Of a stretch of 64,000 bases of DNA, positions 1,150 through 18,467 are shown one piece after another. The notes beneath the pieces are model-generated. The model searched no databases, was not told where the DNA came from, and saw nothing but the letters and a program-made list of their open reading frames with translations. Source of the stretch: a virus; the IMG/VR virus record IMGVR_UViG_3300027769_000020, positions 1 to 64,000 of that record; one strand, written 5' to 3'. The stretch's first letter is position 1. Every line of letters starts with the position of its first letter. Made by a program: the position numbers and the translations under genes.

Positions 1150-2196
1150 CATTATGTTATCTCATAGGCTCTTTATCCTATGATTCTGTAGTTTCTTTTA
1201 GATTATATCTACAGTTCAGACTATATCATCACATATTTCTATGTGTTCTGCGCTCTTGGTATTTTACTGCCTGTTCTAGGCTCCATATACTAGTCGTTGC
1301 ACCTTCCTTACATCCCTGTAAGGCTTGGCTCAGGATTGTCCATCTCTGGAGTTTCCCTGAATTCACAGAATTTATTGCGGACCAACCACTTTATGCTTTT
1401 TTCCATCTATAACCACCAGCAGTTAAGTCTTTAGATATTGCTCTATTAATATTAGAGATACTAAGTTCTTTACTTGCTTGTTTTATAGACTCCCATTTTT
1501 TGATAAAAGTATTATCATTAGTATATTGTAATACTGGTTCTAACTTGTATTGTTTAGTCTTTAAAAGCACATAAGGGGCTTTATAAAAGGACCAAACAAA
1601 TCCTCCAGCAGAGGTTTGTTTTAAACTACACACTGCTTTTATACTGTTAATACTTTTAGCATTAATAGATTTAGCAGCAGCTGTAAAAGATTCAAAACTT
1701 TCTAAATATTCACCTTTTTCTAGTGAATACTTATGTACTGCTCTAAGATTATGAGGTTTTAAACCATTTGCATAAGCTTTTTTCTTAGCATCACTTATTC
1801 TTTGTTTATAAATATCATCTCTAACTAGAGTTTGTGGATCTAGTATATGATTTATATAAGGAATAATTGTGTTAATATAATAAGCTTCTCTTTCAATTAA
1901 AATATCATCAGTGCATTCCTCTACAATATTAAAGTAAATTTCATCTTTACCATATTTATTATATAAGTTTTGCATTGTTCTATTATGATGTTTTAAATTT
2001 TTAAGAGACCACAAATGGTGTTTTAACCTATGACCAATATTACAAGAGCTACCAATGTACTCTTTATCATTAATTTTAATTTTATAGATTCCTATACACT
2101 TTAATGCTGTCTTAAGTGTTTCTGTGTTTAATTTTTCCATATCATAAAGATAATCAAATTATTCACACTAACACAACTAGACTGCATATTTTGTTA
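1150..2196 (-). mobile_element. Group I intron in AAA ATPase gene
   Basis: Begins TAA after exon U (GAU), ends in G; P AATTCAGGGAAAC, Q AATCCTGAGC, R GCAACGACTA, S GATATAGTCT; IGS GTTGGTCCGC pairs with GCGGAU|UAAC. Confidence 0.92.
1391..2140 (-). CDS. Intron-encoded GIY-YIG homing endonuclease with NUMOD1-type C-terminal repeats
   Basis: GIYKIKINDKEYIGSS motif; two repeats ending SAGGFVW / TAGGYRW. Confidence 0.9.
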   Translation of the reverse strand: MEKLNTETLKTALKCIGIYKIKINDKEYIGSSCNIGHRLKHHLWSLKNLKHHNRTMQNLYNKYGKDEIYFNIVEECTDDILIEREAYYINTIIPYINHILDPQTLVRDDIYKQRISDAKKKAYANGLKPHNLRAVHKYSLEKGEYLESFESFTAAAKSINAKSINSIKAVCSLKQTSAGGFVWSFYKAPYVLLKTKQYKLEPVLQYTNDNTFIKKWESIKQASKELSISNINRAISKDLTAGGYRWKKA

Positions 2197-2638: not shown

Positions 2639-3841
2639 TTATAATTCTAACTTGATAACCTTACCTGGTAGGTCTGTATTCATATATGATTGTTCAGACA
2701 GCACCCATAAAATAGGAGCTTTAGGTTTAACGCTTGTATAGCATTCACCATCAGTAAAATACACCAAGCTAGTATATTTTCTTATATTTTCATTATAATA
2801 TTCAAGGACGGGATCAAATTCAGTCCCACCTCTACCATATATCTTAATTTCATTTTTACCTTTATACGGCTCTATACTCTTAATAGCCGTATCACACTGA
2901 ACTATTGTAATATCAACACCTTGTTTATAGATGTGATGTATCTCATTCATGAACTCATGTAATTCTTTATCACATACAGAACCTGAAGTATCAATAGCCA
3001 ACAACATATGTTGTTTCATTTTAATCTTTAGACCAGGATTTTCAGAATATCTTCTATTCTCTTTTCTCCTTATCTTTTTAGTATACACTTTAGATGATAC
3101 ACCAGTAAATCTTCTGATATAACCTTTCCAATCAAACTTAGGTGGAGTGATTGCCTCCATTTCAAGTAAGCCCTCAATTTCTCCAGGAACATTACCTCTT
3201 TTCTTTTCAGTCATTTCCTTAGCATCATTGAGAATCTTATTCAATTGCTTCTCAATTAGCTTCTGTTCAGCCTCAGTTAAATCTTCAAAATCAGACCATG
3301 TTGGATGATCACTTGGCATACCGTCACCAGAGTCCATCTGATCACACAATTTGTCAAAGTTTTCATCACCACTAGTTCCATCTTCACCACCTTTGTCTTT
3401 CTGTTCTTTAGCTTGTTGTAGTTTCTCATAATAATATCTACAACCAGCTTTTCTGTCTAAGTTTAAATCAGGATAATCATCTATATTGATACCACCTTCT
3501 GGGAGATAATCTGTATCAATATACTGATTGATCTCCATATCCATTGCAACATTAGCAAGCTTCTTATCACTAAACTTAAAATACATAGTCAAATGACCAA
3601 ATGCAATATGCAAAAGCTCATGTTTAAGTAATCCAAGTTTGTGATCTTCACTTAATCCTGTCCAGAATTCTTCATTAATAGTAAGCTGATAATTAATATT
3701 ATGTTTACTAACACCAGCAGTAGGAACTTTTTTATTATCCCATACTTTATTCAACATAATTAAAAAGAACCCATAATAAGGCTCCTTTAACATTAAGTCT
3801 TTACTGGTTTTTGCTAAACTATCTTCTCTAGTTTTAGTCAT
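2639..3841 (-). CDS. VWA-domain protein with N-terminal HExxH metallopeptidase-like domain (MoxR partner)
   Basis: HELLH; MIDAS DTSGS; GRGGT; YFTDG; adjacent to AAA ATPase. Confidence 0.85.
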   Translation of the reverse strand: MTKTREDSLAKTSKDLMLKEPYYGFFLIMLNKVWDNKKVPTAGVSKHNINYQLTINEEFWTGLSEDHKLGLLKHELLHIAFGHLTMYFKFSDKKLANVAMDMEINQYIDTDYLPEGGINIDDYPDLNLDRKAGCRYYYEKLQQAKEQKDKGGEDGTSGDENFDKLCDQMDSGDGMPSDHPTWSDFEDLTEAEQKLIEKQLNKILNDAKEMTEKKRGNVPGEIEGLLEMEAITPPKFDWKGYIRRFTGVSSKVYTKKIRRKENRRYSENPGLKIKMKQHMLLAIDTSGSVCDKELHEFMNEIHHIYKQGVDITIVQCDTAIKSIEPYKGKNEIKIYGRGGTEFDPVLEYYNENIRKYTSLVYFTDGECYTSVKPKAPILWVLSEQSYMNTDLPGKVIKLEL

Positions 3842-8052: not shown

Positions 8053-8781
8053 TTATTTATATACTTCTTCCCAGTGAGTTACTACCTCACCCTTTTCATT
8101 AACTTCACTAATTACTACTTCTGCATTTCTTAAATGATCAGGTCTAGCACCACAAGTTGTTTCATCATTAGTTTTAAAACTTAATACAACCTTGTTACCT
8201 TTTCTAAACATGTAACCAATAGCATCAGCATTTGCACAAATCAAAGATTTAATCTTACCAGTTAAATCAATATTAGCAGCCATTACCATCTCACCTTTAT
8301 CATCAACTTGTTTGTCTTTGATATGACCAGATAAAATAATGTGGTCAGCTAACTTATCAACATAGTTTAATACGTCAAAGAAAGCTTCTCTTATATACAA
8401 ATAACCTGCACCATTTGGTAATGTAATTACACTGTCTCCATCATAATTTTTACCCATAGGTGTTGCTTTGTACTTCTTTACAGCTAATGGCATAACCATT
8501 TCTTCTAATGCAGTTACAGTATCAATAGTGATAAACTTATAAGGTTTACCTGCTTCTTCTACTGCTTTACCAATTGCTAATAGTTCTTTCAAACTACTTG
8601 CTTTTACTTTTACTGCATCAACATAGTCAGTACCATTTTCCAAATCAATGATTAAATTACCATCTAAACCTGCAAAAGCTGTTGTTTTACCAGTCTTGGG
8701 TTTAGAGTAGATAACTAATCTTTTTGGATTCTGTCTTGTTGCACTTACCTTTTTAGTAGGCAATACTAATCCTTCACTCAT
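8053..8781 (-). CDS. AAA_24/Sak4-like ATPase (recombination)
   Basis: YSKPKTGKTT Walker A; IDLENG; IDTVT; ADAIGY. Confidence 0.8.
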   Translation of the reverse strand: MSEGLVLPTKKVSATRQNPKRLVIYSKPKTGKTTAFAGLDGNLIIDLENGTDYVDAVKVKASSLKELLAIGKAVEEAGKPYKFITIDTVTALEEMVMPLAVKKYKATPMGKNYDGDSVITLPNGAGYLYIREAFFDVLNYVDKLADHIILSGHIKDKQVDDKGEMVMAANIDLTGKIKSLICANADAIGYMFRKGNKVVLSFKTNDETTCGARPDHLRNAEVVISEVNEKGEVVTHWEEVYK

Positions 8782-15290: not shown

Positions 15291-15557
15291 TCATACCAAT
15301 TCTAATTCTTCTTCTATTATTTCTACAGCAACATCTTCTTGCTTAACCATATCTTCAGGTAAGAATCTTTTAGCATCATAGTATTCATATGGAAAACAAC
15401 CACTCAAATTAACTTCTTCTAAATCAAAACCTAATGTATTTGCCTGTATACCCATTTTAACTGCTCTTACAACAGTATATACATTACCTTTCTTAATCCA
15501 TTGATTTGTAGGTATCTTGTCAGGCTTATTGCTGTCATTAACACAAACTACTCGCAT
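15291..15557 (-). CDS. Hypothetical phage protein
   Basis: MRVVCVND....KGNVYTV...Y.AKRF. Confidence 0.65.
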   Translation of the reverse strand: MRVVCVNDSNKPDKIPTNQWIKKGNVYTVVRAVKMGIQANTLGFDLEEVNLSGCFPYEYYDAKRFLPEDMVKQEDVAVEIIEEELELV

Positions 15558-15786
15558 TTAACTCAACTTTTAAGTTTAACTCTTCAAGTGACATAAGTAT
15601 TTCATACATGTCATCAAATGAACCTGACTTGATATCATATGAACCTTTACTGTCAACAATCATTGCACACTGTTCTGCCTGATCAGGAGAATGTTTGCAC
15701 ACTTTTATAAGACAAGCCATAACATATAAGAAGTCATGACTGTTATCATTATAAAGTGTTATTTTATGTGTCTTTTCCAAAACCAT
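15538..15786 (-). CDS. clpS: ClpS-like N-degron adaptor
   Basis: ITLYNDNSHDF.YV...L..VC.HS..QAEQCA.IV..KG...IKSG, Bacteroidota ClpS pattern. Confidence 0.8.
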   Translation of the reverse strand: MVLEKTHKITLYNDNSHDFLYVMACLIKVCKHSPDQAEQCAMIVDSKGSYDIKSGSFDDMYEILMSLEELNLKVELNASSLC

Positions 15787-15803: not shown

Positions 15804-16316
15804 TTAGTTATTATTTTGGTCAGTTCCAATTATTATTGTGTTACCTAATACATTCATTGACTGTACAATATCATTGTAACCTTTACCATATGGGTCAACA
15901 TAATTCTTAAAAGGTTTAAAATAACCTTTCTTAATTAAGTTTTTAATTCTAACTATTAACACTTCCATTCTTTCTTTATTCTCAGGTAATAAAGCTTCTA
16001 AATCAAATAATGCAGACTCAATTTTAGCCAGAAACAAATTTATCCTGGTATTAAATGCATCTTTTATATAGATTTTATTACTATAATCATCAAATAAGTC
16101 AAGTAATGTAGCTAATGTTTTAGAATCAGTATTACCAAATACAGCCATAGGACCTTCAATAAATTTATCTGACCATTCCCACCACTCAAGTAAGTCTATT
16201 TTAAGGTTAAACTTAAATCTTTTATCTTCAACTACTTCATCAATATCATATAGAGCACTAGATATTTTTACAGCTGCTCTAATGAACTTGATATTATCTG
16301 GATCATATTCTGCCAT
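15804..16316 (-). CDS. Hypothetical protein
   Basis: ORF track. Confidence 0.65.
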   Translation of the reverse strand: MAEYDPDNIKFIRAAVKISSALYDIDEVVEDKRFKFNLKIDLLEWWEWSDKFIEGPMAVFGNTDSKTLATLLDLFDDYSNKIYIKDAFNTRINLFLAKIESALFDLEALLPENKERMEVLIVRIKNLIKKGYFKPFKNYVDPYGKGYNDIVQSMNVLGNTIIIGTDQNNN

Positions 16317-16318
16317 AT

Positions 16319-16600
16319 CTATTTCTTTTTAAACTGTTCAAACCATTCTTTAAATAAATCTTTACCCCAGTACTTAGTTGCTTTACCCTGATACTTATAA
16401 TAAAATATTGCATAATCTCTCATATCTTCTTCACTATACATTCTTTCAGCTTGCCATTTAGCTCCTTCTTTCATTCCTGATAAAAATGCCGCTTTAGCAG
16501 TATCAATCACTAATTGACCTTTGACATCAGCATCTTTTGAAATAAAAATACCATATTTGTCTTTCTGCAATCTTTTAGCAGCTTCTTCTAATGTTTCCAT
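16319..16600 (-). CDS. Small phage protein (ETLEEAA...GAKWQAERMYSEE...FEQFKKK type)
   Basis: ORF track; starts in 20-bp junction repeat. Confidence 0.7.
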   Translation of the reverse strand: METLEEAAKRLQKDKYGIFISKDADVKGQLVIDTAKAAFLSGMKEGAKWQAERMYSEEDMRDYAIFYYKYQGKATKYWGKDLFKEWFEQFKKK

Positions 16601-16618
16601 CTTATTCTGATTTAAAAG

Positions 16619-16714
16619 TTAATCCATTCTTTTTCTTAAAATAAATGCCATTATACCAATAATTAAAAAAGGTAATGCTATACCCCAATTTTCTGGGTGA
16701 AATCCTATTTCCAT
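16619..16714 (-). CDS. Micro membrane peptide (31 aa)
   Basis: MEIGFHPENWGIALPFLIIGIMAFILRKRMD. Confidence 0.55.
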   Translation of the reverse strand: MEIGFHPENWGIALPFLIIGIMAFILRKRMD

Positions 16715-16715
16715 A

Positions 16716-16988
16716 TTATTCTGGTTTAACAGCTAATTCTAAAAAATACTCACTTATGCCTAAAGAAAGCATGTTATTTTCAATCGGATCACCCATAAAA
16801 TCAGAGACTTCCTGTAACTCTTTTTCAGTAATGTACCATTTAAAAACAAACTCACATGACACATCATATATTCTTAACTGAAATTCTTTAATAGATTTAT
16901 ACTCTCCTTTTTCACCATCTGGATTACTCCAAAAGTTAAAAAACTCTACTATTTTATTTACAATTTCTGGTGCCTTTTCTTCTTCCAT
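16716..16988 (-). CDS. Hypothetical acidic protein
   Basis: ORF bounded by junction repeats. Confidence 0.7.
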   Translation of the reverse strand: MEEEKAPEIVNKIVEFFNFWSNPDGEKGEYKSIKEFQLRIYDVSCEFVFKWYITEKELQEVSDFMGDPIENNMLSLGISEYFLELAVKPE

Positions 16989-16989
16989 C

Positions 16990-17073
16990 TTATTCTGATT
17001 TACATCTTATATACATTGCAATTACAAATAATACCACAACAAATATTGTCAGTATTTCTTCTAATTTTTCCAT
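16990..17073 (-). CDS. Micro membrane peptide (27 aa)
   Basis: MEKLEEILTIFVVVLFVIAMYIRCKSE. Confidence 0.55.
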   Translation of the reverse strand: MEKLEEILTIFVVVLFVIAMYIRCKSE

Positions 17074-17074
17074 C

Positions 17075-17143
17075 TTATTTATTTATTGAATTCCACAATT
17101 TCATAACTATAACTATACCTAATAGTATAAACATCAGTTCCAT
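17075..17143 (-). CDS. Micro membrane peptide (22 aa)
   Basis: MELMFILLGIVIVMKLWNSINK. Confidence 0.5.
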   Translation of the reverse strand: MELMFILLGIVIVMKLWNSINK

Positions 17144-17154
17144 CTTATTCTGAT

Positions 17155-17370
17155 TTAAAGGTTATCAATTTCTTGTTTAACTTCTTGCCAATACTCACTT
17201 GCTTCTTCATTACATCCATAATAAGTATTATTACTTGGAAATGTACAACCACTTTTTAATATCTCATCAACACATAATAAAGCACATTTTTTAGAATCAA
17301 GCATTAAAAAATGTTTATTTTCATAATTAAATTTATTTACTAACTCTTCAGCTTTTTCTTTTGGTGTCAT
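17155..17370 (-). CDS. Small phage protein (MTPKEKA...YWQEVKQEI type)
   Basis: ORF track. Confidence 0.7.
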   Translation of the reverse strand: MTPKEKAEELVNKFNYENKHFLMLDSKKCALLCVDEILKSGCTFPSNNTYYGCNEEASEYWQEVKQEIDNL

Positions 17371-18467
17371 AACTTAATATTAAAATCTTTCCACTCAATT
17401 TTACTCTGATCAAATCCTGATAATGCTTCAGTAACCCACTTCTCATCTATAGTATCCATGTAACATAAGATATGTATTACTGCTGTTTCATCTACAGATA
17501 GTCTTAAACATCTACCAATACGTTGACTTGACTTACGTTCATTACCATATGCATGTAAAATTATACACTGTTTAAGATTAGGTATATTAATACCCTCACT
17601 TAATTGTAATACACAAGATAGTTTAGTAATTTGACCTGACTTGAACATTTCTAGATTCTCATTAGACTCAGGATTATTACTATGGTAACTGTATGTACAT
17701 AATTCATCTGCCTGATCTTGAGTATTAGCAAATATAATACACTTAGAACTTATTGACTGACTTAATAGTTTAGTGTATTTTTCTTTACTTGGGAACTCCA
17801 TCATAGCTTTCATTCTCATTACTCTTGAGATTTGCTGCTCTTTGCCTGGACGGGATGTTTCTATCCTATTGCACCAATACTGATAATTAGCATATTCTGT
17901 AGTAAAGAATTGTTTATGCTTACTACCAGCTTTAACATTCTTATTAACATCATCTAACTTAATCTGATGCACTATGATTCTATAATCATTTAAGATATTA
18001 TCATTGATAGCATCATCAGTTAAATATTCATAGCATATAGGATAAAACTCTTGCATCATCTCACCTTTCTCACTATTTACCATTTTAGGAGGAGTACCGG
18101 TAAGTCCTAAGATCTTACCGTCATACTCATCTAAAAATTCTCTATGTGACGGGAGCAATGAATGTGCTTCATCAAAGTATATCATGTCAAACTCTCTTGG
18201 GTCTAGTTTATTTAAACTTAAGTAAGTAGTAAACTGTACATTGTCAAGTAAATGTGACTTGTTAAACTTAATAGCTTCAGTTCTCCATGAAGTAAAAATA
18301 CTAAGCTTTGGAGCTACTATAAGTACATTCATTAATGGAGTCATATTCTTTTCCATATGCATAAGACCAACTAAAGTCTTACCAGTACCAGTAGCAAGTG
18401 ATAAACCACATTTTTTTCTCTTATTAGTAGCATCAAGTGCTGCCTGTTGTATTTCTTCTCTTGTCAT
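17367..18467 (-). CDS. Superfamily 2 DExH helicase
   Basis: ATGTGKT, DEAH, GLTGT, EGINIP, QRIGR. Confidence 0.92.
   Translation of the reverse strand: MTREEIQQAALDATNKRKKCGLSLATGTGKTLVGLMHMEKNMTPLMNVLIVAPKLSIFTSWRTEAIKFNKSHLLDNVQFTTYLSLNKLDPREFDMIYFDEAHSLLPSHREFLDEYDGKILGLTGTPPKMVNSEKGEMMQEFYPICYEYLTDDAINDNILNDYRIIVHQIKLDDVNKNVKAGSKHKQFFTTEYANYQYWCNRIETSRPGKEQQISRVMRMKAMMEFPSKEKYTKLLSQSISSKCIIFANTQDQADELCTYSYHSNNPESNENLEMFKSGQITKLSCVLQLSEGINIPNLKQCIILHAYGNERKSSQRIGRCLRLSVDETAVIHILCYMDTIDEKWVTEALSGFDQSKIEWKDFNIKL

Follow-up and report, generated by a model that had tools for sequence, protein, structure and literature searches.

The sequence analysed here, referred to as the window, is the 64,000-nucleotide (nt) stretch at positions 1 to 64,000 of the 91.5-kb virus record IMGVR_UViG_3300027769_000020, in which a short repeat, hereafter called the element, separates a series of small genes on the minus strand. 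We consider, with a probability of roughly 0.6, that this element serves as a portable stop/initiation junction and, at the same time, as a handle for short-homology recombination. In the model proposed, the element, carried on a long polycistronic mRNA, would end the upstream reading frame in whichever frame it arrives and would present the next ATG in an unstructured, A-rich context of the Shine-Dalgarno-less type found in Bacteroidia. Same-direction copies, identical over 20-27 nt, would in addition be substrates for short-homology recombination, either within a genome or between co-infecting phages, and such exchange would delete, insert, move or swap the small accessory genes lying between copies, each exchanged gene arriving with a working start.

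In the window, a 20-mer is repeated on the minus strand between positions 16595 and 17157 as three exact copies, one copy with 2 mismatches and one partial copy, the same counts as had been given in a first-pass annotation of this DNA. Dinucleotide shuffles of the window yield a mean of 0.04 matches to the 20-mer, with 0 of 100 shuffles reaching five, and the full 91.5-kb record holds no array-type copy besides these. A 3-mismatch match at 22325-22306 was excluded from the array, as it covers an internal Met of a 41-amino-acid (aa) open reading frame (ORF). The layout described earlier, with six ORFs separated by the repeat and five of them starting with Met-Glu, is likewise found here; the gaps between ORFs measure 1-18 nt, and the minus-strand order runs from a helicase-like gene through ORFs of 71, 22, 27, 90, 31 and 93 aa to a 170-aa gene and a ClpS-like gene, as follows.

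17367..18467, minus strand: superfamily 2 (SF2) helicase-like gene, 366 aa (Pfam ResIII/Helicase_C and phrog_16), the conserved left anchor of a variable interval
17155..17370, minus strand: 71-aa gene of phrog_21441 (function not assigned), its stop being the first TAA of repeat copy 1
17138..17157, minus strand: repeat copy 1, exact 20-mer, with AACCTT directly 5'
17075..17143, minus strand: 22-aa hydrophobic micro-ORF, Met-Glu start
17068..17087, minus strand: partial repeat copy, last 12 nt exact
16990..17073, minus strand: 27-aa hydrophobic micro-ORF, with K-S-E-stop inside repeat copy 2
16983..17002, minus strand: repeat copy 2, exact 20-mer
16716..16988, minus strand: 90-aa gene, ending in K-P-E-stop
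16709..16728, minus strand: repeat copy 3, 2 mismatches
16619..16714, minus strand: 31-aa hydrophobic micro-ORF, its stop TAA 4 nt 5' of repeat copy 4
16595..16614, minus strand: repeat copy 4, exact 20-mer, with TTAACTTT directly 5'
16319..16600, minus strand: 93-aa gene of a recurrent small-protein family, preceded by the element in the related locus L111 too
15804..16316, minus strand: 170-aa gene, the conserved right anchor of the variable interval
15538..15786, minus strand: ClpS-like gene, 82 aa (ClpS adaptor of the ClpAP protease, PF02617, E = 1.7e-12)

The element extends over about 27 nt and is composed of (T)TAACCTT, the 14 nt TAAATCAGAATAAG and ATG GAA. It contains a TAA at -14 and another at -4, in two different frames, and its TTAAC form adds a third, at -21, that shares the frame of the ATG. 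Each of the three serves as a stop within the window itself: the second TAA, 1 nt before the ATG, closes the 27-aa and 90-aa ORFs, the first, 11 nt before the ATG, closes the 71-aa ORF, and the TAA of TTAAC, 18 nt before the ATG and in its frame, closes the 31-aa ORF. The ending K-S-E-stop, which the first-pass annotation had read as part of the repeat, thus holds for the exact copy that closes the 27-aa ORF, while the 90-aa ORF ends in K-P-E and the 71-aa and 31-aa ORFs stop elsewhere. Since the two TAAs of the repeat and the ATG stand in three different frames, the conserved unit is a nucleotide element and not a peptide tail.

The same picture emerges from copies outside the window. Among 233 unique contexts the ATG is unchanged in all 233, the 13 nt TAAATCAGAATAA are nearly invariant, the mismatches concentrate at -1 and at codon 2 (GAA or AAA), the AACCTT on the 5' side shows moderate conservation, and three-base periodicity begins at the ATG. 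In 309 contexts, the upstream gene ends at the second TAA in 184 and at the first in 57, a long upstream ORF is lacking in 58, and the upstream frame is that of the ATG in 10, so that about 78% of copies overlap the end of an upstream coding sequence. An ATG preceded by the element opens at least 20 codons in 93% of cases, compared with 44% of random ATGs. The ORF that follows has a median length of 65 aa, and the earlier restriction of the repeat to micro-genes is therefore not borne out. A variant is seen in the sub-lineage of loci L070 and L085: here TAG, with an A after it, serves as the second stop (…CAGAATAGA ATG), a form kept at six consecutive junctions.

This frame usage also bears on a simpler explanation, in which the repeat has no function and represents the conserved 3' end of a proliferating F-K-S-E small-protein family together with the next start, spread by duplication and left behind as the neighbours changed. 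About 80 of the 309 contexts do end in E/K/Q-T-F-K-S-E, with similarity reaching upstream into a shared C-terminal motif, and the F-K-S-E family recurs in the variable interval of the relatives. Such a relic, however, would hardly be met in three frames and in non-coding contexts as well, one of them after a tRNA-like gene with AACCTT kept, nor with an ATG whose distance never varies, and the array of the window contains four full copies and one partial copy without any member of the F-K-S-E family. We regard this explanation as quite unlikely.

Other junctions of comparable layout coexist with the element in these phages. A second recurrent type consists of F-K-K-K-stop, 1 or 2 nt and ATG GCA, and occurs in the window at 16316-16340 (minus strand) and in relatives, e.g., at L111:7176-7200 and L113:8833-8858; another family ends in ...E-I-E-K-L with an ATGA stop/start overlap, so that several junction “dialects” can be distinguished.

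With respect to translation, the initiation region of Bacteroidia is Shine-Dalgarno-less, A-rich at -14..-11 and of little structure (Baez et al. 2019, PMC6847099), and in Flavobacterium johnsoniae A at -3, -6, -12 and -13 has been measured to be a positive determinant of initiation (PMC6847099). The element has A at all four of these positions and a TAAA box at -14, and it shares with the Bacteroidia region the A run at -13..-11, the low structure and the absence of a Shine-Dalgarno word. The start-site profile of the window's other 81 genes (at least 80 aa) is the Bacteroidia pattern too, with an A frequency of 0.63-0.78 at -14..-11, T at -16/-15, A at -3 in a fraction of 0.62, a TAAA box that begins between -15 and -13 in 45 genes and a Shine-Dalgarno-like word in 4. 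These genes nevertheless match the 20 upstream nt of the element at a mean of 8.5 positions and a maximum of 12, which indicates that the element is one fixed form of the general start signal rather than that signal as such: the Bacteroidia region is a loose composition profile, whereas the element comprises 20 fixed nt, non-A positions included, and is repeated. The junction RNAs have minimum free energies of -1.5 to -7.1 kcal/mol in 61-nt windows and fold no better than shuffles (z of -0.23 to +1.55).

A tether to 16S rRNA resembling a termination upstream ribosome-binding site (TURBS) was considered and rejected for one Flavobacteriales 16S rRNA, perhaps not that of the host, the longest run being 10 pairs including G-U, which 26% of shuffled motifs equal. 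It should be noted that the Frigoriflavimonas 16S rRNA in locus L199 (G006:C48:4020-5537) has a 3' end reading ...GGAACATCTCATTT, in which the usual CCTCC anti-Shine-Dalgarno core is altered. Taken as a prediction from sequence, the translational role of the element is well founded, and the element may drive or enhance translation of the gene that follows it. The first-pass annotation had named it a translational coupler; the invariant ATG, the As of Bacteroidia, the unstructured RNA and the stops 1-18 nt before the start all agree with that, and termination and re-initiation would then be coupled at the element.

On the transcriptional side, no minus-strand terminator-like site was found between 14.5 and 19.5 kb, and promoter-like sites in the same region are at chance level (33 found versus 34.1 expected); the array is therefore most likely part of one long transcript. 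This is of consequence for the proposal that the element is a promoter for a host or phage RNA polymerase and gives each small gene its own near-leaderless transcript. In its favor are the conserved upstream sequence with an AT-rich TTTAAAT box and the precedent of crAss-like phages, which place promoter motifs before tRNA genes (bioRxiv 10.1101/2020.03.07.982082). The element, however, ends directly before an invariant ATG, at positions -20 to -1, where a leader would find no space, most copies overlap upstream coding ends as noted above, and the units are not separated by terminators. The generally known promoter consensus of Bacteroidota, at -33/-7, is moreover unlike the element. In addition, the transcripts of F. 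johnsoniae are mostly leadered (PMC6847099). A promoter function is thus very unlikely.

As for its spread, the exact 20-mer is present in 106 IMG/VR stretches, and a reversed control in 0. In 902 kb of fetched loci there are 116 exact copies and 172 with 1-3 mismatches, 288 together against 1 for the control, in a sample of loci mostly fetched because they contain the 20-mer and of related contigs that are not independent. Five whole genomes carry 2-13 copies each, nearly all on one strand per genome and clustered within a few kb; a complete genome of 66.7 kb, for example, has 8 in a span of 8 kb. The copies occur only in clusters of small non-structural genes, which in the window means the replication arm beside the helicase gene, and in loci selected by their helicase (263 relatives found in IMG/VR, 80 of them, 61-92% identical, kept) 62 of 66 copies are oriented with the genes. 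The 66.7-kb genome and a genome of 224 kb both carry the element, both lack the terminase-like protein of the window and both show no more than a remote match to its helicase, from which it follows that the element is common to at least three unrelated backbones.

The helicase and terminase-like protein match only phages of Flavobacterium, Bacteroides (crAss-like) and Cellulophaga, at 25-32% identity, and the hosts of the carriers are probably Bacteroidota. So far the element is known from metagenomic contigs only: when the whole region was compared with cultured phages at the DNA level there was no match, and blastn of cultured phages with the element as 36 nt gave only chance-level matches (E >= 0.03). 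A weak look-alike, possibly due to chance, is seen in the cultured Maribacter phage Panino, whose host belongs to the Flavobacteriaceae (L202:401-534, PP540027.1:3176-3309; 85% over 34 nt, E = 0.4), where it lies directly 5' of an annotated 35-aa gene for a visibly hydrophobic peptide. An origin of the element in host genomes was rejected, a scan of genomes from 185,579 species having returned 10 matches, none of which is a real chromosomal home: the multi-copy matches are phage-like contigs binned into metagenome-assembled genomes from lakes (Flavobacteriales, Chitinophagaceae and others), and the single-copy matches lack the AACCTT context and are few enough for chance. The 14-mer TAAATCAGAATAAG was not found in the literature searched.

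The second part of the model concerns exchange, and in relatives of the window the element has served in it. Gene content between repeats, a comparison already proposed in the first-pass annotation, differs among relatives: with helicases 85-92% identical, the interval from the helicase to the 170-aa gene holds 0 genes in four loci, 2 in one and 5-8 in others, all drawn from a recurring pool of small families. The stretch from the helicase to the pair of 170-aa and ClpS-like genes (15804-18467; L111-L125) is a hyperplastic spot, and the ClpS-like gene adjoins the 170-aa gene in relatives too, as a conserved pairing. The only match of the cargo genes to Pfam or PHROG is that of the 71-aa gene to phrog_21441, paralogues of which stand in tandem in relatives; a Pfam scan of seven cargo proteins from relatives gave no match.

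Particular joints are informative in this regard. The 90-aa gene has relatives in only two other contigs, and in all three an element copy stands at its 3' end, behind which follow the gene for the 31-aa peptide in the window, 120 nt with a second element copy and a gene for a 46-aa peptide in one contig, and a 295-aa gene in the other. The 295-aa protein (L201:2775-3662) has a CxxxCxxC motif typical of radical-SAM enzymes. Between the window and locus L178, DNA similarity ends in one element copy and restarts in the next. L041 has two genes (548 bp) between element copies that are missing from L037, and one 64-aa gene lies in one element-bounded slot in L070 and in another in L085, the flanks being 96-99.5% identical. 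A 63-aa gene is 97% identical in the 224-kb phage and another contig, with the element on both sides and different neighbours. Among 99 clean gene-sized indels seen in comparisons of sequences with at least 85% identity, 3 have the element at both ends, with a 21-26-nt overlap (about 0.01 expected), and 7 more have it at one end. Synteny breaks are found at a fraction of 0.36 of element junctions and 0.18 of matched junctions over all loci, in a stricter version of the comparison, a looser one having been inflated by paralogues and wrong-strand ORFs. The element-bounded indels, the moved 64-aa gene and the shared 63-aa cassette support the recombination handle envisaged in the first-pass annotation; its term “cassette system” is overstated, no dedicated enzyme having been found.

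The element also flanks a tRNA-like gene on both sides, where a protein start is not needed. This gene of 145 nt (L014:116-260, L028:6993-7137) scores 34.4 bits against the Rfam tRNA model, with a cut-off of 29 bits, and the loci with this insert gave no tRNA call with ARAGORN; being about 70 nt longer than a tRNA, it may contain an intron or insert. The element copy upstream of it leads into a two-codon ORF, and the copy on its 3' side retains the AACCTT part.

Several genes in the window are of interest with respect to the way in which such exchange could proceed.

8053-8781, minus strand: Sak4-like single-strand annealing protein (phrog_124, E = 2e-32)
1391-2140, minus strand: endonuclease gene, GIY-YIG-like and HNH-like (homing-endonuclease families), in the replication arm
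2639-3841, minus strand: HNH-endonuclease family gene, in the replication arm

The encoded Sak4-like annealing protein makes short-homology exchange plausible, and recombination at the element is probably homology-driven. A different proposal is that a site-specific nuclease or recombinase, such as a free-standing homing endonuclease, recognises the element, and that cutting there drives the cassette exchange. The joints do lie exactly at the element, and the endonucleases at 1391-2140 and 2639-3841 would be candidates. On the other hand, no inverted-repeat or palindromic structure was found in or around the element, no integrase is present among the left-arm proteins scanned and no integrase or recombinase adjoins the arrays, the joint overlaps equal the repeat length, as plain homologous exchange predicts, and other indels use unrelated short similarities. 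That the element is a nuclease target is very unlikely. Assembly chimeras are probably not the cause of the apparent shuffling: assemblers usually finish with k-mers longer than the repeat, which measures no more than 27 nt, and contigs of different sample origin show the same joints.

The three ORFs of 22, 27 and 31 aa, described earlier as membrane-type peptides, do contain hydrophobic cores, the highest Kyte-Doolittle mean over 15 residues being 2.6-3.0, and these micro-ORFs of the window are predicted to be translated. Among element-preceded ORFs of 20-35 aa, 14 of 22 are hydrophobic, compared with 14% of same-strand control ORFs (Fisher p = 2e-7), and the ratio of nonsynonymous to synonymous polymorphism (pN/pS) is 0.31 in one element-following peptide family (44-47 aa, six versions) and 0.44 in another (25 aa, three versions). 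The hydrophobic excess and these ratios indicate that micro-proteins of this kind are real in these phages.

A number of observations weigh against the reading of the element as a junction and recombination handle. Synteny breaks are in excess by a factor of only about two and, in loci picked regardless of the element, the difference of 0.31 versus 0.17 is not significant (p = 0.10), and because loci were largely chosen for the 20-mer, the shuffling counts are biased upwards. Of the clean indels, 89 of 99 have no element at their ends, and many of these are bounded by other, weaker start-region similarities, so that the element is the best handle but not the sole one. In close relatives from the window's own lineage, the copy number per genome is only 1-4. 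For the three micro-ORFs of the window, tblastn and tblastx against all fetched loci gave no relatives, and a degenerate pattern scan of IMG/VR gave none for the 31-aa ORF. The start of the 27-aa ORF (17056-17079) is a 24-nt copy, with 1 mismatch, of the start of the 93-aa gene (16583-16606), and judged by these sequences this ORF, which ends in the element, could be a recombination chimera; given this copying and the lack of relatives, all three could be by-products of shuffling.

Finally, T-10, C-9, G-7 and T-4 are as conserved as the As, and such conservation of non-A positions goes beyond a generic initiation signal and calls for recent copying or for an additional, specific reader. The latter is the basis of the proposal that a sequence-specific phage protein acting on mRNA, either a translational repressor or an endoribonuclease, for which T4 RegA and RegB are the models, uses the element as its operator or cleavage site and in this way switches a set of small accessory genes together. 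Besides the non-A positions, this proposal would account for the restriction of copies to small non-structural gene clusters, for the element flanking the tRNA-like gene as well and for the fact that other genes share the general start profile only (the mean of 8.5 of 20 upstream nt given above). A candidate RNA-binding protein was, however, not identified, the unrelated backbones would all need the same factor, and at the 3' end of the 90-aa gene the orthologous copy has diverged at about the rate of the gene itself, which argues against strong site-by-site selection. We consider this proposal unlikely and retain the stop/initiation junction with a recombination role.

Among described systems, the element most invites comparison with the Start-Associated Sequences (SAS) of Cluster K mycobacteriophages, short asymmetric repeats whose function is unproven and thought to be translational (Pope et al. 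2011, PMC3203893). The SAS have the consensus GGGATAGGAGCCC with a Shine-Dalgarno core, measure 13 nt, are G+C-rich and are nearly confined to one cluster (PMC3203893). Both repeats occur in many copies per genome, in one orientation and in the non-structural arm, both stand a few nt before a start codon, mostly ATG, with the upstream stop often inside the repeat, and both precede genes of different families. In contrast to the SAS, the element is A-rich and without a Shine-Dalgarno word, is unrelated in sequence and in host phylum, is longer (20-27 versus 13 nt), taking in the ATG and codon 2, and is common to unrelated phage backbones, with recombination joints documented at it; nothing like the ESAS, the extended inverted repeat of the SAS, was seen at the element. 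It is thus an analogue of the SAS and not a member.

The PeSL (promoter-early stem-loop) of T4-type phages consist of a sigma-70-like promoter and a terminator hairpin, and mini-circles in which a single cassette has been excised count among their features (Arbiol et al. 2010, PMC2839356; Comeau et al. 2014, PMC4122927). Like the element, the PeSL are small conserved repeats between non-essential ORFan or small genes in hyperplastic regions, and in both cases recombination between copies explains indels and replacements between close relatives. The element differs in having no strong early promoter (chance level) and no terminating stem-loop and in abutting the ATG; if it acts at all, it would resemble a PeSL moved from transcription to translation within one mRNA. 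It belongs to neither the SAS nor the PeSL. Integron cassettes, which are promoterless small genes handled by a tyrosine-recombinase integrase at an imperfect inverted-repeat attC, offer a further parallel, in that small promoterless genes are added serially at a recurring sequence and are expressed from outside. They differ from the arrays described here, in which no integrase and no attC-type imperfect palindrome were found, in which the element would supply a translation start, as attC does not, and in which the exchange looks like short-homology recombination.

Choice of the start codon in Bacteroidia without Shine-Dalgarno pairing is still being worked out, and the element, as a natural 20-nt leader of fixed sequence standing before hundreds of different genes, is a test object for strong starts and for stop-restart coupling. 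An ATG preceded by it is in addition a cheap marker for very small hydrophobic proteins, of which these phages hold a large set (20-50 aa), often missed by gene callers. For abundant, little-studied lake phages the element provides a concrete sequence-level mechanism of mosaicism, with joints at a defined repeat and on unrelated backbones. A bolder reading, which we put forward tentatively and hold to be possible but doubtful, is that unrelated freshwater Bacteroidota phages share the 27 nt as an accessory-gene “plug”, selected for exchange and not merely tolerated, through which ready-to-translate cassettes circulate. If this were true, 27 nt would suffice to end any upstream frame, to give the next gene an optimal start of the Shine-Dalgarno-less kind and to let phage annealing proteins recombine the copies, and small genes, micro-proteins and even a tRNA would circulate between phage lineages without a dedicated integrase.

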